From: Candidatus Saccharimonadales bacterium
GTDB taxonomy: Bacteria > Patescibacteriota > Saccharimonadia > Saccharimonadales > 2-12-FULL-41-12
NCBI GenBank assembly: GCA_025451045.1
Contig: JANWLD010000001.1
Coordinates: 407,468 to 471,467, forward strand
Length of the DNA: 64,000 nt
Direction of reading: 5' to 3'
This document shows, piece after piece, positions 6,676-63,374 of this stretch. The first letter of the stretch is position 1, and every line of letters begins with the position of its first letter. The notes under the pieces were generated by a model. The model did not search any database. It was not told where the DNA came from and was given only the letters and a program-made list of their open reading frames with translations. The position numbers were made by a program, and so were the translations under genes.

Positions 6676-7698
6676 ATGAAGACACGTGTTGCAATCAATG
6701 GTTTTGGCCGCATCGGCCGAAGTGCTTTTAAGATAGCATATGAACGGCCAGACTTGGAGATAGTAGCTATAAATGATCTTTCCGACAGTGCTACTTTGGC
6801 GCATCTTTTGAAGCACGACAGCAATTATGGCAAATACGACAAAGAAGTAAAGTCCGATGAAAACGGTTTGATTGTAAGCGGCAAACATATAAAACTTTTA
6901 AGCGAAAAAGACCCAGCCGCGCTACCTTGGAAAGAGCTGAAGATTGACGTAGTGATTGAATGCACCGGCTTCTTTACCAAAAAAGAGGGAGCGGAACTTC
7001 ATATCAAAGCCGGAGCAAAACGGGTAGTTATATCCGCGCCGACCAAAAGCCCTGATCTTGAAACAATCGTGCTGGGTGCGAATGAAGACAAGCTGGAGTC
7101 TGCAGGAGAGATAATCAGCAATGCCAGCTGTACGACCAATTCGATAGCGATGGTGATGTCGATATTGGACGAAGCGTTTGGCATCGAAAAGGCCATGCTT
7201 ACGACAGTTCACAGCTATACTGCTAGCCAGAAGCTTCAGGATGCCCCGGCCAAGGACTTGCGCGAAGCACGCAATGCGGCTGAGAATATCGTACCAACCA
7301 CCACCGGCGCGGCAATCGCGGTCGGCTTGACTTTACCGCAGTTGCAGGGCAAGTTCGACGGATTAAGCGTCCGGGTACCGACACCGGTAGTATCACTTAG
7401 CGACGTGACTGTGGTACTCAAAAAAGACGCAACCAAAGAGCAAATAAATGATGTTTTCAAAAAAGCCGCTAAAGAGCCGTTCTATCAAGGAATCCTGGGA
7501 GTCAGCGAAGAACCGTTGGTCAGCGGCGATTATATCGGCAATAGCCATTCTGGAATCGTCGACCTGCTTTTGACCAACGTAGTTGGCGGCAATTTGGCAA
7601 AAGTGGTCGTTTGGTACGACAACGAGTGGGGATATTCCAACCGTCTGGTAGAAGTTGTTGCGGACGTCGGACGATTACTGCATAATAGCTCGAAGTGA
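6676..7698 (+). CDS. gap: type I glyceraldehyde-3-phosphate dehydrogenase
   Basis: Start moved from 6613 to ATG 6676 (SD AAGGA at 6666-6670). The protein then begins MKTRVAINGFGRIGR. Catalytic SCTTNS is present. Confidence 0.9.
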   Translation: MKTRVAINGFGRIGRSAFKIAYERPDLEIVAINDLSDSATLAHLLKHDSNYGKYDKEVKSDENGLIVSGKHIKLLSEKDPAALPWKELKIDVVIECTGFFTKKEGAELHIKAGAKRVVISAPTKSPDLETIVLGANEDKLESAGEIISNASCTTNSIAMVMSILDEAFGIEKAMLTTVHSYTASQKLQDAPAKDLREARNAAENIVPTTTGAAIAVGLTLPQLQGKFDGLSVRVPTPVVSLSDVTVVLKKDATKEQINDVFKKAAKEPFYQGILGVSEEPLVSGDYIGNSHSGIVDLLLTNVVGGNLAKVVVWYDNEWGYSNRLVEVVADVGRLLHNSSK

Positions 7699-8183
7699 GA
7701 ATAGCGCTTAGTACTGACCATGCAGGGTTTGAGCAGCTTAAACTGCTCAAAGAATTTTTAATATCCAAAGGCCATGAATCTGTGGATTTTGGACCAAAAG
7801 AATTTGACGCTGAAGACGATTACCCGGACTTTATTTTTCCTGCTGCCGAGGCCGTAGCTTCTGGTGAATGTGAAGCCGGGATTATCATGGGAGGTAGCGG
7901 ACAGGGCGAAGCGATGGCCGCTAACCGTATAAAAGGCGTGCGATGTATGGTTTATTACGGTCCGGCCAAAGCTGTGGGAGCCGTTGATGCTGACGGTAAA
8001 GAATCCGCTGATGAATATGAGATACTGCGACTTTCCAAACAGCACAATAATGCCAATATGATAAGTTTTGCCGCCCGTTTTGTATCCCAGCTTGAAATAG
8101 AAAAAGCCGTAGAAATCTGGTTGAATGAACAGTTCAGCGAAGTCGAACGCCATCAGCGCAGAATAGGAAAACTGGACAAATGA
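7695..8183 (+). CDS. rpiB: ribose-5-phosphate isomerase B
   Basis: RpiB/LacAB family N-terminus MRIALSTDHAGFE...GIIMGGSGQGEAMAANR. The GTG start overlaps the gap stop. Confidence 0.85.
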   Translation: MRIALSTDHAGFEQLKLLKEFLISKGHESVDFGPKEFDAEDDYPDFIFPAAEAVASGECEAGIIMGGSGQGEAMAANRIKGVRCMVYYGPAKAVGAVDADGKESADEYEILRLSKQHNNANMISFAARFVSQLEIEKAVEIWLNEQFSEVERHQRRIGKLDK

Positions 8184-8185
8184 GC

Positions 8186-8247
8186 CCCGTAGTGAGCCTC
8201 CTAGTTGCTTCGCAAAATAACCTAAGTTCTAGGAGGTCTACTACGGG
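8186..8247 (+). repeat. GTAGTGAGC-type palindromic element, copy 1 (MITE-like)
   Basis: Termini are CCCGTAGTGAGC ... GTCTACTACGGG. The 19-position stem has 16 Watson-Crick pairs, 2 G.U pairs and 1 A-C mismatch. Identical ATGAGC flanks it at 8180-8185 and 8248-8253. Confidence 0.75.
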
Positions 8248-8880
8248 ATGAGCATTGTTTGCCCGACAGTCCTGGCTACAACCGAAGAAGAATACAAGGA
8301 GCAGATGGATCGAATAGCGCCATTTGCCGCGCGAGTTCAGATAGACCTTATGGACGGTGATTTCGCCCAGCCTAAGTCAATTGATGTTGATAAAGTCTGG
8401 TGGCCGGAAGACGTAACAGCCGATATCCATATAATGTATCGCCGACCAGGGGAATATCTTGATACGCTTATTAAACTCAAACCAAGCTTGGTTATAATCC
8501 ATGCCGAAGCCGATGTAGACCACAAGTCATTTGCCGAAAAACTACATGTCGAAGCGATTTCTGCCGGTATTTGCCTGCTAGCCGATACGCCAATAAGCCA
8601 AATCAAAGATATTATTGATGAATTTGACCATGTATTGATCTTTGGCGGTACTTTGGGTAGCTTTGGCGGTAATGCCGATTTGGCCCAGCTGGAAAAGGCC
8701 CGTCAGGCCATAGAGCTGAAACCGACTCTTGAAATCGGTTGGGATGGCGGTGTTAACGACCAAATTGCCAAACAGTTGTCGGACGGTGGAATCGACGTGC
8801 TCAACGCAGGCGGTTTTATCCAAAAAGCCGAAGACCCCAAAGCCGCCTACGAAAAGCTATTGCAACTCATTGAACAATAA
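8248..8880 (+). CDS. ribulose-phosphate 3-epimerase family protein (divergent)
   Basis: Pattern PTVL...QIDLMDGDF...DIHIMY...VIIHAEA parallels Rpe PSIL...HvDvMDGhF...DvHLM...H.E. The first metal-binding His is replaced by Gln. Confidence 0.6.
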   Translation: MSIVCPTVLATTEEEYKEQMDRIAPFAARVQIDLMDGDFAQPKSIDVDKVWWPEDVTADIHIMYRRPGEYLDTLIKLKPSLVIIHAEADVDHKSFAEKLHVEAISAGICLLADTPISQIKDIIDEFDHVLIFGGTLGSFGGNADLAQLEKARQAIELKPTLEIGWDGGVNDQIAKQLSDGGIDVLNAGGFIQKAEDPKAAYEKLLQLIEQ

Positions 8881-8925
8881 AATACAATTTAGCTAGATAA
8901 TTAAAGCATAAGCTAAAAGGTAAAA

Positions 8926-9516
8926 ATGAAACTTTATAAAAACCAAAAAGGCTTTGGGGGAATCGAAGCCTTGATAATAGTAGTCATTATAGGGCTGATC
9001 GGAGGAGTTGGATATTATGTTTATAACAGACAGACCTCTAAAAATGAAGAACCACAAACAGCCGCGATAGTAAAAGAAGAAAATCCAAAAACAATAACAA
9101 AAGAGTCTCTCCCAGAACTTGTTGATTACGGAGAAGATGGCATTTCAGTTACTAAAAAATCGGACGCAAAAAAACTTTATGACACAAGCGAGTCGTTTAA
9201 GGCTTTTATAGCCTCCAGAGTTCCTGAAAAAGAAGCTCCCCTGGACCCTACTAAATGTAATGAAAGCCAAGGTTTCTATGTACGAAAAGTATACAAGGAT
9301 AAGTTTGCTATAGGAAATGCCTGCGCTGACAATATTGCCGGTTTTATTATATGGGCAAAAGAGGATGATCAATGGGGAAAGCTAATAGTAAGCTCCGAAC
9401 AACTGTCCTGTGAATTTATTAATAAGCATAATATTCCCGCTAAATTAGACAGTAATCTAGAAGCCTGTTATGTGGAAAAATCAGATGGTGATTTGGTCAA
9501 AAAGAACCTGAATTAA
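8926..9516 (+). CDS. type IV pilin-like (prepilin-type N-terminus) protein
   Basis: Class III signal KG|FGGIEALIIVVIIGLIGGVGYYVY: Gly-Phe cleavage site, Glu at +5 and a hydrophobic helix. Cys pairs occur in the C-terminal part. Confidence 0.7.
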   Translation: MKLYKNQKGFGGIEALIIVVIIGLIGGVGYYVYNRQTSKNEEPQTAAIVKEENPKTITKESLPELVDYGEDGISVTKKSDAKKLYDTSESFKAFIASRVPEKEAPLDPTKCNESQGFYVRKVYKDKFAIGNACADNIAGFIIWAKEDDQWGKLIVSSEQLSCEFINKHNIPAKLDSNLEACYVEKSDGDLVKKNLN

Positions 9517-9547
9517 AACCTGACTTCTTGGTATAATCATTAGCGTA

Positions 9548-10405
9548 ATGACGAAGAGTCTGAGTATTGCTGAATTGGAGCAAAAAGCGACCGAAATACG
9601 CGAAAGCATAATTCGGATGCTGGAACATGCCGGCAGCGGACACTCCGCTGGCTCGCTAGGACTAGCCGATATATTTACCGCGCTATATTTTGATATTTTA
9701 AAATGCGAACCGAAGAAACCGGACTGGGATGGGCGCGATATTTTGTTGCTTAGTAACGGCCACACCGTACCAGTCCAATATGCCGCTTTAGCTCACGCTG
9801 GCTATTTTCCCAAAGGAGAGTTGATTACCCTGCGCAGGTTTGGTTCACGCCTGCAAGGCCATCCCGAAAGAACCAAGCTGCCGGGGCTGGAAACTACCAG
9901 TGGCCCCTTGGGCTGCGGATTAAGCCAGGCAGCTGGGATGGCACTGGCGATGCGAATGGATAAAATTACTCATCGCTGGGTGTATGTAGTGATGGGCGAC
10001 GGCGAACTGGACGAAGGCAATATCTGGGAAGCGGCGATGCTGGCGGGCAAATATAAGCTCAGTAACGTTATAGGTATAATCGACAGAAATAATATTCAAA
10101 TAGACGGCCCTACGGAAAGCGTTATGCCGTTGGAGAACTTGCATGAAAAATGGGAAGCATTCGGCTGGCATGTACTGGAAATAGATGGAAACAATATGCA
10201 AGAAATCATTGATGCGTGTGCGCTGGCTCGTTCGATAATCGAAAAACCGGTTGTCATAATCGCCCATACTATTCCGGGCAAGGGCGTGGATTTTATGGAA
10301 TATGACTTTCACTGGCATGGCAAAGCGCCGAACAAAGAAGAAGCTAAGAAAGCTTTGAATGAACTACGTACGCTTAAGGGGAAAATACGAAGTGAACATG
10401 AGTAA
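9548..10405 (+). CDS. transketolase, N-terminal (TPP-binding) subunit
   Basis: GHSAGSLG and GDGELDEGNIWEA motifs. The 285-aa length is typical of split transketolases. Confidence 0.9.
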   Translation: MTKSLSIAELEQKATEIRESIIRMLEHAGSGHSAGSLGLADIFTALYFDILKCEPKKPDWDGRDILLLSNGHTVPVQYAALAHAGYFPKGELITLRRFGSRLQGHPERTKLPGLETTSGPLGCGLSQAAGMALAMRMDKITHRWVYVVMGDGELDEGNIWEAAMLAGKYKLSNVIGIIDRNNIQIDGPTESVMPLENLHEKWEAFGWHVLEIDGNNMQEIIDACALARSIIEKPVVIIAHTIPGKGVDFMEYDFHWHGKAPNKEEAKKALNELRTLKGKIRSEHE

Positions 10406-10411
10406 TCGTCC

Positions 10412-10510
10412 ATACTTTCATTCTAAAGGGCGCTCTTTCACCTATGAATTTCTTGCTTATGGCAGGAAATTCAAGGGAAGCGCTAGCAAACCCTTTAGAT
10501 TCGAAAGTAT
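10412..10510. repeat. 99-nt imperfect palindrome between the two transketolase subunit genes
   Basis: ATACTTTCATTCTAAAGGG...GAATTTC, a 13-nt loop, then GAAATTC...CCCTTTAGATTCGAAAGTAT. It is not related to the GTAGTGAGC family. Confidence 0.6.
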
Positions 10511-10532
10511 TCACTTTGGGAAGAGGCTATAA

Positions 10533-11504
10533 GTGAGGGAGCTTCATTTAGTTAAGGATGTATTGGCTAAGGACATCGTACTGGAGGCCAACCGAAAAGG
10601 TTTTGGCCGCGGCTTACTTGCCATAGGCAAAATTAATGAAAATATCGTCGCGGCTTGTGCCGATTTAACGGAATCAACCCAGATACACTTGTTTGCCGAG
10701 GCTTTTCCAGAGCGTTTTATAGAAGTAGGCGTAGCCGAACAAAATTTAGCGACTCTTGGTTCCGGTTTGAGCGCCATGGGTAAAATCCCATTTATCTCCA
10801 GCTACGCGGCTTTCAGTCCGGGTCGCAACTGGGAGCAGATAAGGACGACCATCTGCCTAAACGACCGGCCGGTAAAGATAGTCGGCGCCCATGCCGGACT
10901 TTACACCGGAGCTGACGGCGCGACGCATCAAGTGCTGGAGGATATCGCGCTGATGCGGGCTTTGCCAAACATGGCAGTTATCGTACCGGGCGATAGCGTT
11001 GAGGCTGAAAAGGCAGTTGCAGCGATGGCAAATGACCACCGCCCGAATTATCTTCGATTAACACGTGAGCCAACACCGGTACTGACCACAAGCAAAACAC
11101 CGTTTGAAATCGGTAAAGCCTACGTTTATGCCGAAGGAAAAGATTTGACTGTCATTTCTACCGGGGTAATGACTTATCAGGCTATGGTTGCGGCCGAGCA
11201 TCTGTTTAAAGAAGGGATTGACTTGGAGGTTATTCACGTACCAACGATAAAACCGCTGGATTCGCTTACTATTCTCCACAGTGTCCATAAGACTAAAAAA
11301 GTTATAACCGTCGAAGAACATCAAATAAATGGCGGGTTAGGCGGCGCGGTTGCTGAGCTTTTGGCCGAAGAATTTCCGGTACCTGTTAAACGAATCGGGG
11401 TGCGCGATAAATTCGGCCAATCCGGCAAACCCGATGAACTACTAGAACATTACGGGCTGACATCGAAACACATCATGGCACAGGCCCGCAAGATGGTAAA
11501 ATAA
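10533..11504 (+). CDS. transketolase, C-terminal (pyrimidine-binding) subunit
   Basis: EVGVAEQNLATLGSGLS and the C-terminal domain are present. GTG start with SD GGAAGAGG 6 nt upstream; the start position is uncertain. Confidence 0.85.
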   Translation: MRELHLVKDVLAKDIVLEANRKGFGRGLLAIGKINENIVAACADLTESTQIHLFAEAFPERFIEVGVAEQNLATLGSGLSAMGKIPFISSYAAFSPGRNWEQIRTTICLNDRPVKIVGAHAGLYTGADGATHQVLEDIALMRALPNMAVIVPGDSVEAEKAVAAMANDHRPNYLRLTREPTPVLTTSKTPFEIGKAYVYAEGKDLTVISTGVMTYQAMVAAEHLFKEGIDLEVIHVPTIKPLDSLTILHSVHKTKKVITVEEHQINGGLGGAVAELLAEEFPVPVKRIGVRDKFGQSGKPDELLEHYGLTSKHIMAQARKMVK

Positions 11505-53877: not shown

Positions 53878-54135
53878 GGGGATGTGGTGGAATTGGTAGA
53901 CATTTACCTGGTAGTAAAGTTCTGGAGGCGCGGTGGTGGAATTGGTAGACACGCTAGTTTTAGGAACTAGTGCCGCAAGGTGTGAGAGTTCGAGTCTCTC
54001 CCGCGCCACCAAAACTTTTACTACTGGGCGCTAGTCCCAGCACTAAAGCAAAGCTTAGTGCTGGACTTTGCTTAGGAACTAGCGTGAAGGTTAGCTTGGT
54101 GCGATAGCCCAAGCGCTGTCCTTTCATCCCCACCA
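53878..54135 (+). pseudogene. disrupted tRNA-Leu-like gene enclosing the intact tRNA-Leu
   Basis: Acceptor 5' strand plus D-arm lie at 53878-53903. CGCTAGT (54029-54035) and TTAGGAACTAG (54072-54082) are anticodon-arm pieces. CATCCCC+ACCA (54125-54135) is complementary to GGGGATG at the 5' end. No T-arm is present. Confidence 0.45.
53927..54011 (+). tRNA. tRNA-Leu (anticodon UAG), type II, CCA encoded
   Basis: Manual cloverleaf: acceptor GGCGCGG/CCGCGCC, D-arm GTG-GAATTGGTAGA-CAC, anticodon arm CTAGT-TTTAGGA-ACTAG, 13-nt variable arm, T-arm GAGAG-TTCGAGT-CTCTC, then ACCA. Confidence 0.9.
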
Positions 54136-54137
54136 AA

Positions 54138-54167
54138 TTGACATAAGCGGATTAAGTGTGTTATAAT
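54138..54167 (+). promoter_or_regulatory. near-consensus promoter of the hisS/his operon leader
   Basis: TTGACA (54138-54143), an 18-nt spacer ending in TGT, then TATAAT (54162-54167). The predicted TSS coincides with the A of ATG 54174. Confidence 0.65.
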
Positions 54168-54173
54168 AAAATC

Positions 54174-54236
54174 ATGGTTATAAAGCTAACTAATCAGCAT
54201 CATATACATCTATCGCCGGAGCTGTCGGTTAGTTAA
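54174..54236 (+). CDS. candidate his leader peptide MVIKLTNQHHIHLSPELSVS (20 aa, leaderless)
   Basis: ATG lies 7 nt after the -10 box. Three His codons fall within four positions (54198-54209). TAA stop at 54234-54236, followed by a terminator. Confidence 0.55.
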   Translation: MVIKLTNQHHIHLSPELSVS

Positions 54237-54259: not shown

Positions 54260-54286
54260 AACGCCGGACACGCTCCGGCGTTTTTT
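54260..54286 (+). terminator. intrinsic terminator (attenuator) in the hisS leader
   Basis: AACGCCGGA-CACGC-TCCGGCGTT followed by TTTTTT. The upstream CGCCGGAGC (54214-54222) can alternatively pair with the 3' arm GCTCCGGCG (54272-54280). Confidence 0.75.
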
Positions 54287-54331
54287 ATAGATTTAATAAA
54301 TATTAGAATATACTTTAACGAAAGGAAAGTT

Positions 54332-55624
54332 ATGAAAAAGGGAGTTGAACCCGCAATTTTGAAAGGAACCAGGGATTTTCTGCCCGCTGATATGGCGCAG
54401 AGGAATGAGGTTTTGGCCAAAATAAAAAACACTTTTGAAAAATTTGGTTACCAACAGATAGAAACACCTATCTTAAGCTATGCCGAAACGATATTAGGCA
54501 AAGAAAAAGAGAACAGTCAGAAGATGGCTTATTCGTTCAAAGATTATGGCGAGCGCGATATTGCCTTGCCGTTTGACTTGACCATGCCTTTTTCCCGGTT
54601 TGTTGCGGCTAACTGGCGGGATCTGCCGATACCGTTCAAGCGCTTCCAAATCCAGCGGGTATGGCGCGCCGAACGGCCGCAACGCGGGCGTCTGCGTGAA
54701 TTTTACCAATGCGACGTAGATATCATCGGTTCAAACGAGCTGGTCTGCGAGGCTGAAATTGCCAAATTGATTACTCAGGTTTTCGATGAGCTAAAAATCA
54801 AAGATATAAAAATACGCGTAAATTCGCGGAAACTACTAAATGAAATATTGACTGGGTTCGGTGTCGAAAAAGATAACCTGATACCAGCTATACGGCTGAT
54901 AGATAAACTGGACAAAATCGACAACACGGCGGTAGTAGAAGGGCTAAAGAAGCTAGGTATAAAAAACGCCGCCGAGATTATCGGGGTACTCAAAACGGAT
55001 AAAGACAACCAAGCCACCCTGAAACAGCTTGAAGCATACGATACGACGGACTTGCAGGAATTTTTGCGTTTGAGCCGTGAATTCGGAGTTGATGAAACGC
55101 GATTGGTACTTGATCCCGGCCTGGCACGAGGGCTGGATTATTACACCGGAATAATCTTTGAAGTTGTTTCAAGCGATGAAAGCCTTGGTACTATCTGCGC
55201 CGGCGGCCGTTATGATGATTTGTCGGCGATGTTCTCAAGCAAGGAATTCTCCGGTATCGGCGTATCCTTTGGCTTCGAGCGAATCATGCTGTTTATGCAG
55301 GAAAACGGGCTTATTGCCGACGGCAAGCCAAGTTCCAGAGTATTGATAACGGTTTTTGACGAAGGTTCGCTGGATGGGTCGATAAAAATCTACAAATCAC
55401 TGCTCAAAGCCAGTGTTCCGGCGGAGATTTATCTGGATGAAACCAACCTCTCCAAACAGTTTAAATATGCTGATAAAAAGAATATACCGTTTGTCGTAGT
55501 GCAAGGCCCGGATGAGCTTCGCGACAACGAGGTGATTGTACGAAGAATGAGTAATGGCAACCAAAAGAAAATTCCTGCCAGCCAGCTTGCTTCCTACATA
55601 GCAGGTTATTATGAAGCGAACTAA
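54332..55624 (+). CDS. hisS: histidine--tRNA ligase
   Basis: Class II motif 2 (RVWRAERPQRGRLREFYQCDVDIIG), GGRYDDL, motif 3 (GVSFGFERI) and a complete C-terminal anticodon-binding domain. Confidence 0.85.
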   Translation: MKKGVEPAILKGTRDFLPADMAQRNEVLAKIKNTFEKFGYQQIETPILSYAETILGKEKENSQKMAYSFKDYGERDIALPFDLTMPFSRFVAANWRDLPIPFKRFQIQRVWRAERPQRGRLREFYQCDVDIIGSNELVCEAEIAKLITQVFDELKIKDIKIRVNSRKLLNEILTGFGVEKDNLIPAIRLIDKLDKIDNTAVVEGLKKLGIKNAAEIIGVLKTDKDNQATLKQLEAYDTTDLQEFLRLSREFGVDETRLVLDPGLARGLDYYTGIIFEVVSSDESLGTICAGGRYDDLSAMFSSKEFSGIGVSFGFERIMLFMQENGLIADGKPSSRVLITVFDEGSLDGSIKIYKSLLKASVPAEIYLDETNLSKQFKYADKKNIPFVVVQGPDELRDNEVIVRRMSNGNQKKIPASQLASYIAGYYEAN

Positions 55625-56237
55625 TATCCGAATAGCCATCCAAAAATCCGGCCGGTTGAGAGCAAAGAGCGAGAAGCTGTTAAATGAATGGGGCATTGAC
55701 TGTGAAGCCGATAATAAAGGCCGGTTGGTCATTCCCTGCAACGGAGGCGAATTTGAGATTTTGTTTGTACGTTATGGCGATATTCCGGAGTATGTAGCCA
55801 GCGGGGTGGCTGATTTCGGTATCGTCGGCCAGAATATCTTGTATGAAGACCGGTTTAATGTTGGCGTGGTCAAGCAGTTGGGCTTTGGCGAATGCCGTTT
55901 GATTGTTGCCGCTCCAAAGCGTTCATCGATAAAAACGGTGGCGGATTTGGAAGGCGAACGCATAGCGACATCTTACCCGAACAGCTTGCGAAAATTCCTG
56001 AAAAAAGAGCGTTTGGGCGCGACTATCATCAAAATCCGCGGCGGAGTGGAAGCCGCTCCGGCCATAGGCTTGGCTGACGCCGTGTGCGACCTTACCCAGA
56101 CGGGTAAGACTTTGGACGCCAACGGACTGAAAATAATCGCTACAGTGCTGGAATCCCAGGCTGTATTGATTGAATCCAAATTCTTATCGGCCAAAGCCGA
56201 AAAGTTCAAAGAAAAAGTGTTACAGGCCGCATCATGA
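55611..56237 (+). CDS. hisG: ATP phosphoribosyltransferase, short form
   Basis: 208-aa HisG catalytic core without the C-terminal regulatory domain. The ATG overlaps the hisS 3' end by 14 nt. Confidence 0.9.
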   Translation: MKRTNIRIAIQKSGRLRAKSEKLLNEWGIDCEADNKGRLVIPCNGGEFEILFVRYGDIPEYVASGVADFGIVGQNILYEDRFNVGVVKQLGFGECRLIVAAPKRSSIKTVADLEGERIATSYPNSLRKFLKKERLGATIIKIRGGVEAAPAIGLADAVCDLTQTGKTLDANGLKIIATVLESQAVLIESKFLSAKAEKFKEKVLQAAS

Positions 56238-56833
56238 TAGCCGTTGTTGATTATGACGCCGGTAATATCGGCTCGGTTGCCAATGCCTTAAAGCGTTTGG
56301 GGGCTAAGTTTGAAGTTACTTCCGATACCGACACAATACGCAAAGCCGACGGAGTAATCTTCCCCGGCCAAGGCAGAGCTGGGCCGGCTTTGAAGTCGCT
56401 TCAAAAATCCGGCCTGGACAAGCTGTTGCCAAGTTTAAAACAACCGTTTCTTGGAATTTGCCTAGGGATGCAGTTAATGGTTGAAAAACTGGAAGAAGAT
56501 AATCAAACCGGGCTGGGAATCGTTCCGGGCAAGTGCGAACTTTTTAAAGATATCAGTCCGGTGCCGCACATGGGCTGGAACAAAGTTAATATTGTGCAGG
56601 ACTCCAAGCTCCTTGCTGGCCTTAAAAGCGGTTCTTACCAGTATTTTGTGCACAGTTACGCTGTTAAAACCGATAAGGAGTTCACTGTTGCGGTTACCGA
56701 TTATGGCGGAGAATTTGCCAGCGCGGTTAACAGAGATAACTTTTATGGCGTCCAATTTCACCCTGAGAAGTCAGCAGAAGCCGGCGAGCAGATACTTAAT
56801 AATTTTTTAATAATCTGTGGAGAGAAAAGGTGA
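56234..56833 (+). CDS. hisH: imidazole glycerol phosphate synthase, glutaminase subunit
   Basis: Class I GATase with GICLGMQL and HSY..., then FHPEKS. Confidence 0.9.
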   Translation: MIAVVDYDAGNIGSVANALKRLGAKFEVTSDTDTIRKADGVIFPGQGRAGPALKSLQKSGLDKLLPSLKQPFLGICLGMQLMVEKLEEDNQTGLGIVPGKCELFKDISPVPHMGWNKVNIVQDSKLLAGLKSGSYQYFVHSYAVKTDKEFTVAVTDYGGEFASAVNRDNFYGVQFHPEKSAEAGEQILNNFLIICGEKR

Positions 56834-57540
56834 TCGTTTATCCCGCTATTGATTTGATAAATCGTAAAGCTGTGCGTTTGGAGCAAGGCAATTACGACAA
56901 AAAGACAGAATACTCTGATAACCCTATTGAGATAGCCCAAAAATTTGAGTCTGAAGGCGCTGAGTATATCCACATTGTTGACTTGGACGGCGCCAAAACC
57001 AAACGGCCCGTTAATATGGACGTGATTAAAGACATTGCAAAATCCATTAACATTCCTGTTCAGGTTGGCGGCGGTATCCGTACGCTACGCTCGGTCGAAG
57101 AGTTGCTTGAATATGCCAAAAGAGTGATTATCGGTACGATTGCGGTGACCGAACCGGAGGTGTTAGAACAGATGGTTAAAAAAATCGGCTCCGACAAGAT
57201 AGTCGTATCTGTTGACTACAAGAATGGATCGCCAGCTATAAACGGCTGGTTGGAAGAAGTTAAGTTAACCACAGAGGCCTTGCAGGTCCGTCTGAGCGGT
57301 TTAGGTATCCGAACAGTCATAGTTACCGATACGGATAAAGACGGCATCTTAAGCGGTCCTAACATTAAACTGATGAAACAGTGGAAACAAGCCGGGTTTG
57401 ATACGATCTGCGCCGGAGGGGTAACAACTGTCAATGATATAGCAGAACTTGCTGCAGCCAATATCGATGGTGCGATAATTGGCAAGGCGCTTTATGAAGA
57501 TAGGATAACTTTAAAGGAAGCTATAGATGCTGGCGAATAG
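56830..57540 (+). CDS. hisA: ProFAR isomerase
   Basis: YPAIDL...VRL.QG, HIVDLDGA and GGGIR motifs. GTG start overlaps the hisH stop. Confidence 0.9.
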   Translation: MIVYPAIDLINRKAVRLEQGNYDKKTEYSDNPIEIAQKFESEGAEYIHIVDLDGAKTKRPVNMDVIKDIAKSINIPVQVGGGIRTLRSVEELLEYAKRVIIGTIAVTEPEVLEQMVKKIGSDKIVVSVDYKNGSPAINGWLEEVKLTTEALQVRLSGLGIRTVIVTDTDKDGILSGPNIKLMKQWKQAGFDTICAGGVTTVNDIAELAAANIDGAIIGKALYEDRITLKEAIDAGE

Positions 57541-58384
57541 GATCATACCGTGCATGGACATCAAAGACGGCCGGGTGGTCAAGGGCACCCATTTCAAAGA
57601 TTTGGTTGATAGCGGCGATCCGCTAGAGCTTGCTAAGAAATATGCTGACCAAGGCGCCGATGAGCTAGTACTTCTGGATATCGTCGCTACTGTCGAGGAG
57701 CGCAAAAATCGGGCCGGATTGGTCCGGGCTGTTGCCGAGGCCATTGCCATTCCTTTTAGCGTTGGCGGCGGCGTAAGCGAGCTATCCCACATCAACGAAC
57801 TTTTAAATGCCGGGGCAGATAAAGTATCTATCGGCTCGGCCGCAGTGACTGATGCGGGCTTTGTTAAAAAAGCCTGTGACAGATTCGGCTCCCAAGCGAT
57901 AATTATCTCCCTTGACCCGAAAAGAGTTATTGATAGCGGCAATCCATTTGCTTCAACAGAGCGCTCTACAGGTGAGCCTACGGCTCAGCCTGTGGCGCTA
58001 GCAGACTCAATTGAAACAAACAGATTACCGCTTTTAAAGTGGGATGTTTATATAAAAGGCGGCCGTGAAAATACCGGAGTTGATGTGATAGAATTTGCCA
58101 AAAAAATGGAAAAATTGGGCGTAGGCGAACTTTTAGTCAATAGCCTTGACCGCGACGGTACTAAAAAAGGCTTTGACATAGAGCTTTTAGATAAAATATC
58201 AAAATCTGTGAATATTCCGGTGATTGCCAGTAGTGGTGCCGGCAGGATCGATGATTTTGTGGAAGTCTTTAAAAGAACCGGTGTCACGGCGGCATTGGGC
58301 GCGTCTGTGTTTCACGGGCGGCAATTTACAGTTGGGGACGTAAAGGCTAGACTAAAACTAGAGGGAATAGAGGTCAGACAATGA
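57527..58384 (+). CDS. hisF: imidazole glycerol phosphate synthase, cyclase subunit
   Basis: RIIPCMDIKDGRVVKG, DRDGTKKGFD and ASSGAG motifs. It has a loop about 30 aa longer than compact HisF proteins. Confidence 0.9.
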   Translation: MLANRIIPCMDIKDGRVVKGTHFKDLVDSGDPLELAKKYADQGADELVLLDIVATVEERKNRAGLVRAVAEAIAIPFSVGGGVSELSHINELLNAGADKVSIGSAAVTDAGFVKKACDRFGSQAIIISLDPKRVIDSGNPFASTERSTGEPTAQPVALADSIETNRLPLLKWDVYIKGGRENTGVDVIEFAKKMEKLGVGELLVNSLDRDGTKKGFDIELLDKISKSVNIPVIASSGAGRIDDFVEVFKRTGVTAALGASVFHGRQFTVGDVKARLKLEGIEVRQ

Positions 58385-58710
58385 GCCAAAAAACGAATAA
58401 ATTGGATTTTGCTAAAAACGGCGGATTGGTACCGGCAATTATCCAGGACAACGAATCCGACATGGTTTATATGCTGGGATACATGAACGAGGAAGCGTAC
58501 GCCAAAACTAAACAGTCTGACTGGGTACATTTCTGGAGCCGCAGTAAAAACCGAATTTGGATGAAGGGCGAAGAGTCCGGCAACAAACTAAAAGTCGTTT
58601 CTATATTTGAAGATTGCGACCAAGACACATTGCTTATAAAAGTAAAACTACACGGCGAAGCGGTTTGCCATACCGGACATCTGAGTTGTTTTTATGAAGA
58701 AATTAAATAA
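58381..58710 (+). CDS. hisI: phosphoribosyl-AMP cyclohydrolase
   Basis: GLVPAIIQD, WSRSKNRIWMKGEESGN and DCDQDTLL...CHTG motifs. Confidence 0.9.
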   Translation: MSQKTNKLDFAKNGGLVPAIIQDNESDMVYMLGYMNEEAYAKTKQSDWVHFWSRSKNRIWMKGEESGNKLKVVSIFEDCDQDTLLIKVKLHGEAVCHTGHLSCFYEEIK

Positions 58711-58719
58711 GGAGAAAGC

Positions 58720-58995
58720 ATGACATTGGACGAACTGTATAACCTAATTGAAGATAGAAAAAAGAATAAACCAACAGGCTCATATGTGGCATCTTTGTTT
58801 GAAGAAGGGCAAGACCGCATAACCCAGAAAGTCGGCGAAGAAGCGGTTGAAGTAGTGATTGCCGCTAACAGAGGCCAAAAAACCGAACTCGTAGCGGAAA
58901 TGGCCGACCTTTGGTTCCACTGCTTGATTTTATTATCATCCGCAGGTATTAAGCCCGAAGAAGTATTGGCTGAACTCGAAAAACGCAAGAAGTAA
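58720..58995 (+). CDS. hisE: phosphoribosyl-ATP pyrophosphatase
   Basis: SYVASLFEEG...KVGEEAVEVVIA...ELVAEMADLWFHCLILL (MazG-like HisE). Confidence 0.9.
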   Translation: MTLDELYNLIEDRKKNKPTGSYVASLFEEGQDRITQKVGEEAVEVVIAANRGQKTELVAEMADLWFHCLILLSSAGIKPEEVLAELEKRKK

Positions 58996-59034: not shown

Positions 59035-60321
59035 ATGCAAACGAGTATAACTAAGATTTCTGAGACTAAAGTAAAGTTGGTTATCAAAGCTACGGCGGAA
59101 GAGTTGTTGCCTGCCAAAAATAAAGTCTTGGCCAAACTCGGCAAAGAAGTTAAGCTAGCCGGTTTTAGAGCTGGCAAAGCTCCGCTGGAACTTCTTGAAA
59201 AAAACATCGACCAAAACCGACTGCAAACTGAATTTTTGGACGAAGCCATGACCGCGCTTTATACCCAAGCCGCTGAAGCTGAAAAAATCCGGCCGGTTGC
59301 CGGGCCGCAGGTAACGGTCAAAAAATTTGTGCCGTTCACTACGCTCGAATTTGAAATCACTACAGATGTTGTCGGAAAGATAAAATTAGCTAATTATAAG
59401 AGTATAAAGCTTGCCAAAACCAAGCCGGAAGTGGCAGCCAAAGACGTAAACGGCGTTTTAGATTCGCTAAAGCTCCGGCTGGCTGAGAAGACTGACGTGG
59501 ACCGGGCCGCTAAAGCCGACGACGAAGCGTTAATAGATTTCAAGGGCGTGGACGACAAAGGCGCGCCGATAAACGGCGCGGACGGCAAAGATTATCCGCT
59601 AGTTCTTGGCAGTAACAAATTCATACCGGGCTTTGAGGACAACCTAATCGGGCTTAAAGCAGGCGATGAAAAGACATTTGAACTGACTTTTCCAAAAGAT
59701 TACGGCGTAAAGGCTCTGGCGAATAAAAAGGTCAAATTTAGCGTTAACGTCAAGAAAATCCAGGAAATGAGCGAACCAAAGCTGGATGATGCTTTCGCGG
59801 CTAAAGTCGGTCCTTTCAAAACGCTCAAAGACCTCAAAGACGATATCAAAAAACAGCTTCTCACTGAAAAGCAAAGCGAAGTTAATCGAGATTTTGCAAA
59901 TAATCTGATAGAAAAAATTATCGATAAAAGCATATTGTCCCTACCGGATTCAATGATTGAACATCAGGCCGAACATAATTTTGAAGAGTTGAAGCGCAAT
60001 CTTGTTTATCGCGGGCAGACCCTTCAGGAGTTCTTGCAAGCCGAAGGTACCACCGAAGAAAAGTATAAAAAAGACATTCTATGGCCGCAGGCCGAAAAAC
60101 AAGTAAAAGGCAGCTTGGTTTTAGCTGAAATCGCTGAAGCCGAAGTGATATCGGTTACACCGGAGGAATTGGAAATCCGCCTCCAGATATTAAAGGGGCA
60201 GTACAAAGATCCGCAGATGCAGGCCGAACTTGATAAACCCGAATCCCGCCAGGATATCGCGTCTCGAATGCTTACCGAAAAAGTGCTTATAAAACTAGAA
60301 TCTTACACAGCCATACATTAG
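59035..60321 (+). CDS. tig: trigger factor
   Basis: N-terminal ribosome-binding GFRAGKAP motif, central FKBP domain and a C-terminal helical domain. Confidence 0.9.
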   Translation: MQTSITKISETKVKLVIKATAEELLPAKNKVLAKLGKEVKLAGFRAGKAPLELLEKNIDQNRLQTEFLDEAMTALYTQAAEAEKIRPVAGPQVTVKKFVPFTTLEFEITTDVVGKIKLANYKSIKLAKTKPEVAAKDVNGVLDSLKLRLAEKTDVDRAAKADDEALIDFKGVDDKGAPINGADGKDYPLVLGSNKFIPGFEDNLIGLKAGDEKTFELTFPKDYGVKALANKKVKFSVNVKKIQEMSEPKLDDAFAAKVGPFKTLKDLKDDIKKQLLTEKQSEVNRDFANNLIEKIIDKSILSLPDSMIEHQAEHNFEELKRNLVYRGQTLQEFLQAEGTTEEKYKKDILWPQAEKQVKGSLVLAEIAEAEVISVTPEELEIRLQILKGQYKDPQMQAELDKPESRQDIASRMLTEKVLIKLESYTAIH

Positions 60322-60377: not shown

Positions 60378-60731
60378 ATGGACGATTCACCTTCCCCGGA
60401 ACAAGATCCATTCCATCGCAGTATTAGGCTGCTTCACATTTGCCCTAAGTGTGACAGTAAATTAGTACAGCCGGAAAAATGGGAGCCTGCAGGTAGTAGT
60501 AAGGGTAGCTGGCAGATATGGCTAAGGTGTCCGGATTGTGAACATAGGACCGAAGGCGTGTTCGGCGCAGAGGTCATTGATGCCTACGACGAAGAGTTGG
60601 ATGATGGTACCGCCGAGCTTAACTACGTGCTAAAAGACCTTGAGAGGAAAAGTATGACTAACCTTGTTGAGGTTTTTGCGGTAGCTCTTGAAACAGACTT
60701 GATTCAGGCGGATGACTTTCGGCCTCGTTAA
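60378..60731 (+). CDS. hypothetical C4 zinc-ribbon protein (117 aa)
   Basis: CPKC...(26 aa)...CPDC followed by an acidic C-terminal half. Confidence 0.5.
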   Translation: MDDSPSPEQDPFHRSIRLLHICPKCDSKLVQPEKWEPAGSSKGSWQIWLRCPDCEHRTEGVFGAEVIDAYDEELDDGTAELNYVLKDLERKSMTNLVEVFAVALETDLIQADDFRPR

Positions 60732-61860: not shown

Positions 61861-61940
61861 TCCATTTACAATAAAATCCTTACGCTTGCAAACAGACTGT
61901 CTTGATGATATTGTCGGAAGAATTAAGGAGTAATTATTTA

Positions 61941-63374
61941 ATGGCAGATTTAAACCCTGGTGAAGTTTTAGAACGTTTTAGAGAAGATTTGGACAGAGTA
62001 CACCAGGTCGAAGATAGTTGCGGCACAATCGAAGCGGATGCGCTAAATGCTGCTAGTGCTGCTTCCGAATTTGCTGAAAGTGCTAAAAGTATAATGGATA
62101 GCGCTACGAGAGATACGGAATCCGTTGTAAAACCGGCATTAGCAGCTATAGAAGAAGCTGCTGGCCGAAATCCCAGTAGCGATGAAGCGATAAGGGCTAT
62201 CATGTCCGTCAAAGGCAAGACAGATGAAGAGATAGAAGCCCATTTTGAGCATTTCGAGGCAACCAGTGAAGAAGAACAGCCGGTAATCGTCATAGGCGGC
62301 AGCGAGAAAGGACTTGGACTTGAAGGACTAATATCAGTTACTTATGGGCGCACAGCTACCAAAAACGAAATCAGATCTTTTCTCAAGACCTATACGGGTC
62401 ACGGAACGCATGTTGATAGCAGGAAAAGGGGGCTAGGGGAGCGTTATATTGGTATACTGGCGAAATCCCAAAGGGCATTCTCAGTCAGTACATCAGATGA
62501 GTATCCTATTGATTTATTTGCGGATCAACCAACTGCTGAGAGATTTTCTTTGATTTCAGCAAATTCTAATATGGCTGCCCATCCTTTTGAAGAGATACAT
62601 TTTGCTGGAAATGCGGTAGAGGTCAGAGATATGACTGAATCAATAGTAGGCGCTTATAGGAAACCGTCTGTAGCGGATGCTATGGCAGTCCAAAGTCTTG
62701 GCCTTCCAACCATGGTGGCATATGGAGAAGATGCCGTTTTAGAACTTTCGGCAAGAATAGGCGAAACAAATCCTCAGAGCAGAATTCTTGCCAGACGATG
62801 CATAGAAGGACTTGGCATAGACATGGAATATATTGCCGATGAGTTACCTGATGAAGACATTCCTAATCTATCTGAAAAGATAGTTTCAGACTTTGGTAAC
62901 CATTTGTTCGTAAAGTTTGACGAAGCTTTAACCGAGTTTTTGCGCCATGGCGGAACTCCCGCTGCTGATCATATTAGAACGTTGGCTTTTTTGGCTCCTA
63001 TGCAAAAGGCGATAGGTTATGCGCCGCCTACTGTACTTGATAAAATGGTTGGAGAATTGTCATCTCAAATAAACGTGAACTATTCTTTTGTAGAAGGTGT
63101 AGAAGTGACGGTTGCGGCAGTTAAGCCTTTGTCACCAACTGAAGCATCGGAGACTAAGTCAGTAAAAAGTGAATTGGAAAAGTTAATGGATAGAATGGAA
63201 GAATTAGGTATAGCCTATGTCCCTAAAGATGGCCTTGATATGGAAATGTTAGCAAGAAGGGTAGAAAGACCAGCAGTAAGAAAAGAGCTGGCAAATACAT
63301 CAAAAATACACTTTGCGAAAAGAGATGATCTTAAGGTATGTGTACGAGCCTTAACTCAAGAAGACCAAAATTAA
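61941..63374 (+). CDS. hypothetical acidic protein (477 aa)
   Basis: Start moved to ATG 61941 (SD AAGGAG at 61925-61930). No P-loop or other recognisable motif. Confidence 0.6.
   Translation: MADLNPGEVLERFREDLDRVHQVEDSCGTIEADALNAASAASEFAESAKSIMDSATRDTESVVKPALAAIEEAAGRNPSSDEAIRAIMSVKGKTDEEIEAHFEHFEATSEEEQPVIVIGGSEKGLGLEGLISVTYGRTATKNEIRSFLKTYTGHGTHVDSRKRGLGERYIGILAKSQRAFSVSTSDEYPIDLFADQPTAERFSLISANSNMAAHPFEEIHFAGNAVEVRDMTESIVGAYRKPSVADAMAVQSLGLPTMVAYGEDAVLELSARIGETNPQSRILARRCIEGLGIDMEYIADELPDEDIPNLSEKIVSDFGNHLFVKFDEALTEFLRHGGTPAADHIRTLAFLAPMQKAIGYAPPTVLDKMVGELSSQINVNYSFVEGVEVTVAAVKPLSPTEASETKSVKSELEKLMDRMEELGIAYVPKDGLDMEMLARRVERPAVRKELANTSKIHFAKRDDLKVCVRALTQEDQN

Follow-up and report, generated by a model that had tools for sequence, protein, structure and literature searches.

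The textbook example of an aminoacyl-tRNA synthetase paralogue taken over for amino-acid biosynthesis is HisZ, and we know of no described intermediate on the way to that recruitment. In the HisZ–HisGS hetero-octamers of Lactococcus lactis, Thermotoga maritima, Psychrobacter arcticus and Acinetobacter baumannii, a gene of the histidyl-tRNA synthetase (HisRS) family lies directly 5′ of, and is co-expressed with, the gene of an ATP phosphoribosyltransferase (ATP-PRT; HisG) of about 210 amino acids (aa) that lacks the C-terminal histidine-binding domain. The same arrangement, as read from the genes alone, is found in a 64-kb stretch of the genome of a Candidatus Saccharimonadales bacterium (assembly GCA_025451045.1, contig JANWLD010000001.1, positions 407,468 to 471,467; hereafter the window), where a hisS gene overlaps hisG at the head of a histidine biosynthesis (his) operon (Table 1). 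Both the gene content of the window and its best database relatives agree with an origin in Candidatus Saccharimonadales (Patescibacteria). In contrast with the HisZ–HisGS systems, however, the partner gene encodes a full-length HisRS, complete in its motifs and anticodon-binding domain, that passes the hisS model, and the HisG scores nearer to long-form cores than to HisGS structures. This is a variant of the known his-operon and ATP-PRT arrangements in which an intact synthetase takes the place of HisZ; a literature search on hisS, hisG, hisZ, the short form and Saccharibacteria turned up no earlier description of hisG coupled to a full-length hisS. The module that it exemplifies is widespread and mobile by horizontal transfer: it couples an intact HisRS translationally to a HisG devoid of a regulator, and hisZ is absent.

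The closest solved relatives of the window HisG are the catalytic domains I and II of homohexameric long-form enzymes (HisGL; PDB 4yb5, 1h3d, 2vd3, 1nh7); unlike these, it lacks the HisG_C domain and ends where an engineered 4yb5 core (PDB 5ub9, 226 aa) ends, a core that is reportedly dimeric, active and insensitive to histidine. Like the enterobacterial hisL leader (Rfam RF00514), the window has a short open reading frame (ORF) with clustered His codons, putative alternative hairpins and an intrinsic terminator ahead of his genes; unlike hisL, its leader holds only three to four His codons, has its ATG where transcription is predicted to begin, stands ahead of hisS in addition to the his genes, and occurs in Patescibacteria. 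Xenologous displacement in situ, a concept of comparative genomics, is known for aminoacyl-tRNA synthetase genes; here too a distant gene of the same function sits in the same slot of otherwise syntenic genomes, with the difference that the new synthetase gene comes joined to the operon that makes its own amino acid.

We consider it moderately likely that the window encodes an ordinary HisRS, co-regulated by attenuation with a truncated HisG that works on its own, so that hisZ would be unnecessary. Among the explanations weighed below this one is rated highest because all the co-occurrence data can be accounted for in cis and no new biochemistry is needed. The first-pass annotation of this DNA had offered a choice between a hisZ encoded elsewhere and a HisRS doubling as the regulatory partner of HisG, which misses this simplest case, a stand-alone, feedback-insensitive HisG under a putative His leader attenuator upstream of hisS.

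The hisS–hisG junction and its conservation

The 430-aa product of hisS scores 385.2 bits against the NCBIfam hisS model TIGR00442 (cut-off 286.75), fails the hisZ model TIGR00443 (189.3 bits; cut-off 271.65) and stays far under the cut-off of each of the NF0089xx HisZ models. Its Pfam domains are tRNA-synt_His (residues 12–318) and HGTP_anticodon (residues 346–424; 56.3 bits), and motif 2, RGLDYYTG, GGRYD and motif 3 are all kept in the alignment with its best solved relative, PDB 6nhi (277 bits). Motif 2 (WRAERPQRGRLREFYQCD), LARGLDYYTG, GGRYD and motif 3 (GFER) are each conserved in at least 98% of 119 homologues. The hallmarks of HisZ—absence of the anticodon-binding domain and loss of the aminoacylation motifs—are therefore not those of this protein, which retains both domain and motifs. 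The first-pass annotation had judged that it looks like a true HisRS and had proposed aligning it with the HisRS and HisZ families; the model scores and motifs bear the judgement out: by its signatures this is a bona fide full-length HisRS, predicted to aminoacylate tRNA(His).

Table 1. Features of the hisS–hisG region, in window coordinates.
Feature	Positions	Strand	Description
Promoter-like site	54138..54167	+	TTGACA-18-TATAAT, 12 of 12 matches, TG-extended
Leader ORF	54174..54236	+	20 codons, MVIKLTNQHHIHLSPELSVS followed by stop; His at three of four consecutive codons
Intrinsic terminator (proposed attenuator)	54260..54290	+	9-bp stem with 6 GC pairs, T-run; 45 nt before hisS
hisS	54332..55624	+	ATG start; 430 aa, full-length, catalytic motifs intact; type nearest PDB 6nhi and eukaryotic cytoplasmic HisRS
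hisS/hisG overlap	55611..55624	+	14 nt, ATGAAGCGAACTAA; hisG start inside the last hisS codons
hisG	55611..56237	+	ATP phosphoribosyltransferase catalytic core, 208 aa; long-form-like by sequence, regulatory domain absent
hisH	56234..56833	+	TIGR01855, 222.8 bits (cut-off 105.4); ATGA junction with hisG
hisA	56830..57540	+	TIGR00007, 261.5 bits (cut-off 228.95)
hisF	57527..58384	+	285 aa; TIGR00735, 324 bits (cut-off 294.55)
hisI	58381..58710	+	Phosphoribosyl-AMP cyclohydrolase (PRA-CH); NF000768, 134.1 bits (cut-off 126)
hisE	58720..58995	+	Phosphoribosyl-ATP pyrophosphohydrolase (PRA-PH); NF001611, 115.9 bits (cut-off 99); final operon gene

The overlap with hisG, both of whose ORFs were recovered on the plus strand with ATG starts as first annotated, is conserved. 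Genomic context, with up to 10 kb of flank, was fetched for ten close HisRS or HisG homologues, and in nine of these a 14-nt overlap of the pattern ATGA(A/G)GCnnnnTA(A/G) joins hisS directly to hisG. With the window counted, it occurs in all ten hisS–hisG loci, down to 55% HisRS identity, in Saccharimonadales (L001, L009, L012, L014, L083 and L085) and in three other lineages (L010/L011, a metagenome-assembled genome labelled Deltaproteobacteria RIFCSPLOWO2_01_44_7; L013, assembly GCA_040960375.1; and L015, ACD_51C). The same length and a near-identical sequence in nine of nine other loci are not due to chance. The rest of the operon varies across cassettes, with hisA–hisF, hisI–hisE and hisC–hisN fusions, a 417-aa gene standing in for hisC, and whole blocks gone. 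More broadly, the 120 best HisRS homologues are 53–78% identical and, where named, belong to Saccharimonadales, Pacebacteria, Gracilibacteria or the "Patescibacteria group"; about 30 of them lie on contigs identical in size to those of some among the 120 best HisG homologues. The tenth fetched locus, L086, carries the window HisRS type alone (55% identical), on a 1.05-Mb contig with no his genes nearby.

Searches by tblastn with both HisRS types described below detected no second HisRS- or HisZ-like sequence in the 64-kb window, and no second HisRS-family gene was found in the fetched parts of the nine related cassettes; the initial remark that the cluster contains no hisZ thus extends to the window and to these cassettes. 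One way to read such a locus is that the HisRS, besides charging tRNA(His), binds the truncated HisG and activates it, or lends it histidine sensitivity through the histidine pocket of the synthetase, or does both; such a HisZ-like role, reached without duplicating the gene, would either be convergent with HisZ or resemble its precursor. The gene order, which is that of hisZ–hisG, the invariant translational coupling in all ten loci across lineages and the lack of both hisZ and HisG_C in every cassette are in its favour, but no mark of a second role was found in the HisRS sequence. When 63 HisRS homologues ending in the overlap pattern were compared with 40 lacking it, only two residues, both encoded by the overlap itself, differed; the search for further residues marking hisG linkage was thus negative, although weakly so, because the group of 40 also contains hisG-linked genes. 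The occurrence of the same HisRS type unlinked, in L086, counts further against the proposal, as does the failure to find a clean HisRS–HisG fusion. The sole fused ORF, P0417 (933 aa), joins the HisRS catalytic part to HisG and HisD parts, but was set aside as evidence of an interaction, since it is incomplete for both proteins, lacking the distal anticodon domain and approximately the first 45 HisG residues; it is probably a deletion, a pseudogene or a miscalled ORF.

Two side observations concern these cassettes. At HisRS residues 78–84 (window 54569–54586) this HisRS family has ALP(Y/F)DLT, with Pro80 in at least 98% of 119 sequences, and other HisRS have Arg at this position (ALRYDLT in PDB 6nhi, A(L/I)RPEMT in the native type of Saccharimonadales); Pro80 was considered as a marker of hisG linkage and dropped as a family trait, because the unlinked L086 protein shares it. 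In one Saccharimonadales subgroup, seen in L001 (7077–8974) and L085 (9916–11813), hisD is followed by genes for a 417–418-aa protein without Pfam match and a 214-aa HAD hydrolase, situated where other cassettes have hisC, hisN and hisB, and these two may be non-orthologous replacements.

Two HisRS types at one chromosomal slot

A RecG-anchored scan of metagenome contigs gave 67 Saccharimonadales loci, 28 of which extend far enough for comparison of the slot. These 28 his-less loci show the order tyrS-recG-rsmD…hisS-tig-clpP, with hisS directly before tig, where the window has its hisS-led operon. Their slot hisS products have a median identity of 28.9% to the window HisRS; for RecG, Tig and ClpP the corresponding values are 61.7%, 54.6% and 77.8%. 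The native type is itself a full HisRS, as indicated by 350.5 bits on TIGR00442 (L084) and by Pfam tRNA-synt_His and anticodon domains (L060). The window and six Saccharimonadales sister loci have the other, foreign HisRS type in that slot together with hisG, and no native-type hisS was detected either in the window or in those parts of the six sister loci that were fetched. The closest relatives of the window HisRS from outside Saccharimonadales are hisG-linked genes of other lineages, 55–57% identical. Since the 28 his-less loci hold a hisS of a different type in the slot, the window HisRS appears to have come with the his cassette and to have replaced the native one; we infer that the cassette arrived by horizontal transfer, that the native hisS was displaced and that one of two hisS genes was then lost.

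L084 (GCA_036276755.1), whose RecG is the closest to that of the window (77%), has retained the native-type hisS, and at positions 6761–10806 this gene comes immediately before cassette-type hisD-hisC-hisN, after which tig follows; hisG, hisB, hisH, hisA, hisF and hisIE are absent. Because L084 keeps the native hisS alongside cassette-type hisD-hisC-hisN, either HisRS type seems able to serve as the housekeeping enzyme. Within Saccharimonadales, the incoming hisS type and hisG occur either together or not at all.

These data also bear on the suggestion that the genome holds a hisZ, or another canonical hisS, at a different site, so that two HisRS-family proteins, one of them the hisG-linked copy, would divide the roles between them. 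We hold this to be improbable. The searched DNA is the 64-kb window out of a contig of 538,338 bp, and classical short HisG systems do have hisZ; but the gene fills the very slot in which 28 relatives keep their own hisS, and on this synteny it is very probably the only HisRS of the cell, a second canonical hisS elsewhere being unlikely. Moreover, no native-type gene accompanies it in the window or the fetched relatives, the catalytic and anticodon-domain residues are strongly conserved, L084 points to a single hisS, of one type or the other, at each locus, and the HisG sequence is not of the HisZ-dependent kind (see below). Small Patescibacteria genomes also, to our knowledge, rarely retain redundant synthetases.

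The proposal of an interacting HisRS gains from the slot comparison in that the cassette brings its own HisRS type, which was kept over that of the host, and in that this type goes with hisG without exception in Saccharimonadales. Such co-occurrence can, however, all be explained in cis: because the promoter, the candidate attenuator and the hisG start lie in or before hisS, the two genes would be gained, transferred and deleted together. That a full-length, active HisRS acts as the histidine-sensing or activating partner of HisG, in a welded hisS–hisG module that crosses phyla and displaces the resident HisRS, is regarded here as unlikely. Were it true, it would constitute an independent origin of a synthetase–ATP-PRT partnership, given that the window HisG derives from the long-form lineage, or else a living model of the step before HisZ, and the pair would offer a natural system for testing how synthetase recruitment starts.

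In the his-less loci L060 and L076 (18103–18597), a 164-aa truncated HisG-like ORF (Pfam HisG, 72.8 bits, profile positions 9–125 of 158) reaches precisely to the native-type hisS start codon, and a weaker HisG-like copy lies upstream of hisS in L029 (14720–15139). This ORF could be what is left of an earlier his operon in the slot, or a HisRS-associated protein.

The HisG type and the candidate control region before hisS

The window HisG scores 196.7 bits on TIGR00070 (cut-off 75.75). Pfam finds the HisG domain alone, HisG_C (PF08029) being absent, and hisH begins at the hisG stop codon, so that the earlier description of a 208-aa HisG without regulatory domain stands. The further supposition that it is of the HisZ-dependent kind does not. 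Against long-form PDB chains (286–310 aa: 4yb5, 1h3d, 7dah, 2vd3, 1nh7, 5lht and 5u99) it obtains 101–139 bits, and against all other short chains (206–232 aa, including the HisZ-co-deposited 1z7m_E, 5m8h_E, 8oy0_E and 1usy) 74–89 bits; 5ub9, a 226-aa chain of 4yb5 sequence, scores like the long forms. In the genome collection, the nearest relatives found outside Patescibacteria are HisGL of Bacteroidota (285–300 aa, 41–50% identical), a phylum reported to have HisGL alone and to lack hisZ (PMC8305728). The 150 nearest cluster representatives, out of 1.84 billion, comprise 64 of long-form and 47 of short-form length. A neighbour-joining tree—a rough one, without support values—places the hisS-linked HisGs in one clade, sister to the short Patescibacteria HisGs L002 and L003, with L007 further out, and the entire short Patescibacteria clade nested among long forms. 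No hisS or hisZ was found within 10 kb of the L002, L003 and L007 genes.

By these comparisons the window HisG is a long-form-type core that lost its tail, distinct from classical HisGS, which by itself has low activity (PMC10795190), and the truncation seems to have come before the linkage to hisS. The idea that the locus preserves the ancestral state from which HisZ evolved likewise finds no particular support, the HisG clade being nested in long forms, related short HisGs lacking an adjacent hisS, and the HisRS type occurring alone in L086. Short hisG and hisZ have been treated in the literature as implying one another (PMC8305728). If HisRS and HisG do not interact, the short form of HisG arose at least twice and can exist without HisZ, and an operon for making an amino acid can bring with it the matching synthetase and substitute it for the resident one. 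For the reading in which they do interact, that the hisS-linked HisGs form a single clade is favourable, but the long-form affinity of this HisG and the sister short HisGs without hisS or hisZ are not. As a separate observation, P0365 (312 aa) joins a TrpR/HisR-family domain to a complete short HisG, placing a histidine-binding repressor domain on a sensor-less HisG.

The region before hisS contains a perfect promoter-like site of sigma-70 type, a His-rich leader ORF and an intrinsic terminator (Table 1). The transcription start predicted from the promoter is at or beside the leader ATG, and the leader stop codon lies just 3′ of a GTCGG segment able to pair with the terminator 5′ arm. Homologous leaders (N/Q-HH-x-H...SPE) are present in all six Saccharimonadales sister loci (MNTFNYTNHHHLHLSPELVG, MFKTYSNQHHLHLSPERLG, MVKQLINQHHTHLLPELVG, MFYITDQHHAHTSPERVG, MVKQLTDQHHTHLLPERVG and MKTLNVSDHHHIHISPELVG), each followed by CGCCGGAGC…GTCGG…terminator in the same arrangement, so that, with the window, seven loci have an HHxH leader and a terminator; across five aligned relatives the terminator is nearly invariant. 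On folding, CGCCGGAGC can pair with the terminator 3′ arm and GTCGG with the 5′ arm; the free RNA adopts a nested 1:4 / 2:3 pairing, and masked folds mostly give the terminator. No Rfam family matched the leader, either at the gathering threshold or at E values up to 10, His_leader RF00514 included. Other cassettes differ: L015 has a distinct leader with HHH, and in L010 and L013 a TrpR-family gene stands just upstream in place of the leader. The TrpR family is that of the histidine repressor HisR, and His-codon leaders have been reported in some Gram-positive lineages (PMC9413887). Together, promoter, His leader and terminator make up a candidate attenuator, which would lengthen the short list of regulatory devices known from Patescibacteria. 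A conserved TAGAAT/TATAAT box that lies after the terminator and before hisS (about 54303–54316) could be a second, basal hisS promoter.

The account that we favour, an ordinary HisRS next to a stand-alone HisG, can then be put as follows. A cassette of promoter, His leader, terminator, hisS, hisG and further his genes would have entered this Saccharimonadales lineage by horizontal transfer, its hisS taking over from the native gene of a different type between rsmD and tig. Its HisG, from a Patescibacteria clade of long-form-type enzymes that had lost the C-terminal histidine-binding domain, would act alone and be insensitive to feedback, control being transcriptional. When His-tRNA(His) is scarce, the ribosome would stall on the HHxH leader codons and cover the first segment, leaving GTCGG free to pair with the terminator 5′ arm and allowing read-through into hisS–hisG; when charging is good, the ribosome would reach the leader stop and cover GTCGG, and the terminator would form. 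This shared sensor of tRNA(His) charging, a reasonable means of controlling both genes, together with translational coupling through the 14-nt overlap, would hold hisS and hisG together.

A number of observations weigh against this account. The overlap persists down to 55% identity while the operon around it is reshuffled, which exceeds the obvious need of co-regulation; the incoming hisS type and hisG are strictly associated in Saccharimonadales; and no cassette encodes another histidine-sensing partner for the sensor-less HisG. The hisS and hisZ searches covered 64 kb of a 538-kb contig. As to the attenuator, the proposed antiterminator pairing is less stable than the local terminator hairpin (about −15 kcal/mol), and covariation support is absent because the stems are almost invariant. 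Lastly, hisD, hisC, hisN and hisB are missing from the window operon, which makes histidine doubtful as its product. Because the overlap is invariant amid operon change, and HisG has neither sensor nor HisZ, a moonlighting HisRS retains some weight, small as it is.

The shortened his operon and its surroundings

In L012 and L009 the cassette reads hisS-hisG-hisD-hisC-hisN-hisB-hisH-…, and the window, L083 and L014 lack hisD-hisC-hisN-hisB. In these three the deletion is precise, with each of its ends at an ATGA stop/start junction, and the hisG stop and the hisH start now share ATGA (window 56234–56237). Pairwise identities define the groups {window, L083, L012} and {L014, L009}, from which it follows that hisD-hisC-hisN-hisB were lost at least twice. 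A protein database search with the L012 HisD returned no hit on a 538,338-bp contig and no close copy attributable to the window assembly. The six retained genes, hisG, hisH, hisA, hisF, hisI and hisE, are intact and all above equivalog cut-offs, and among the window, L083 and L014 the retained his genes are 65–84% conserved, on a par with tig or recG.

The operon could be a decaying remnant, in which hisG and the other his genes are on their way out after the loss of hisD, hisC, hisN and hisB, and the overlap persists for the sole reason that hisS is essential. The shared absence of these four genes from three loci, the absence from the protein database of a cassette-type HisD on a 538,338-bp contig and the complementary remnant of L084, with hisD-hisC-hisN only, speak for such decay; the intactness of all six remaining genes and their tig- or recG-like conservation speak against it, and that the same precise loss occurred at least twice suggests that the hisG-H-A-F-I-E half still has a function. 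Decay is therefore given little credence. The six retained enzymes would convert phosphoribosyl pyrophosphate and ATP to imidazole glycerol phosphate (IGP) and 5-aminoimidazole-4-carboxamide ribonucleotide (AICAR), not to histidine. Feedback by histidine on HisG may accordingly have no bearing in this genome, and one may speculate that AICAR is the useful product. The comparison shows that within Saccharimonadales the his operon was cut in half precisely and more than once.

On the 3′ side, hisE is followed by tig, from position 59035, and then clpP. The latter is flanked by a 117-aa ORF with two CxxC pairs (60378–60731) and a 490-aa ORF (61902–63374), for neither of which a Pfam match was found. 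On the 5′ side lie tyrS, recG, rsmD, a FemAB-family gene on the minus strand and a tRNA-Leu. This tRNA-Leu(TAG) (53927–54011) is preceded, at about 53884–53902, by a copy of its first ~20 nt, and followed by a degenerate tRNA-like stretch (about 54070–54137) that repeats the anticodon arm and ends in CCACCAAA; these repeats (53880–54137) could be the scar of a rearrangement or integration beside the cassette.

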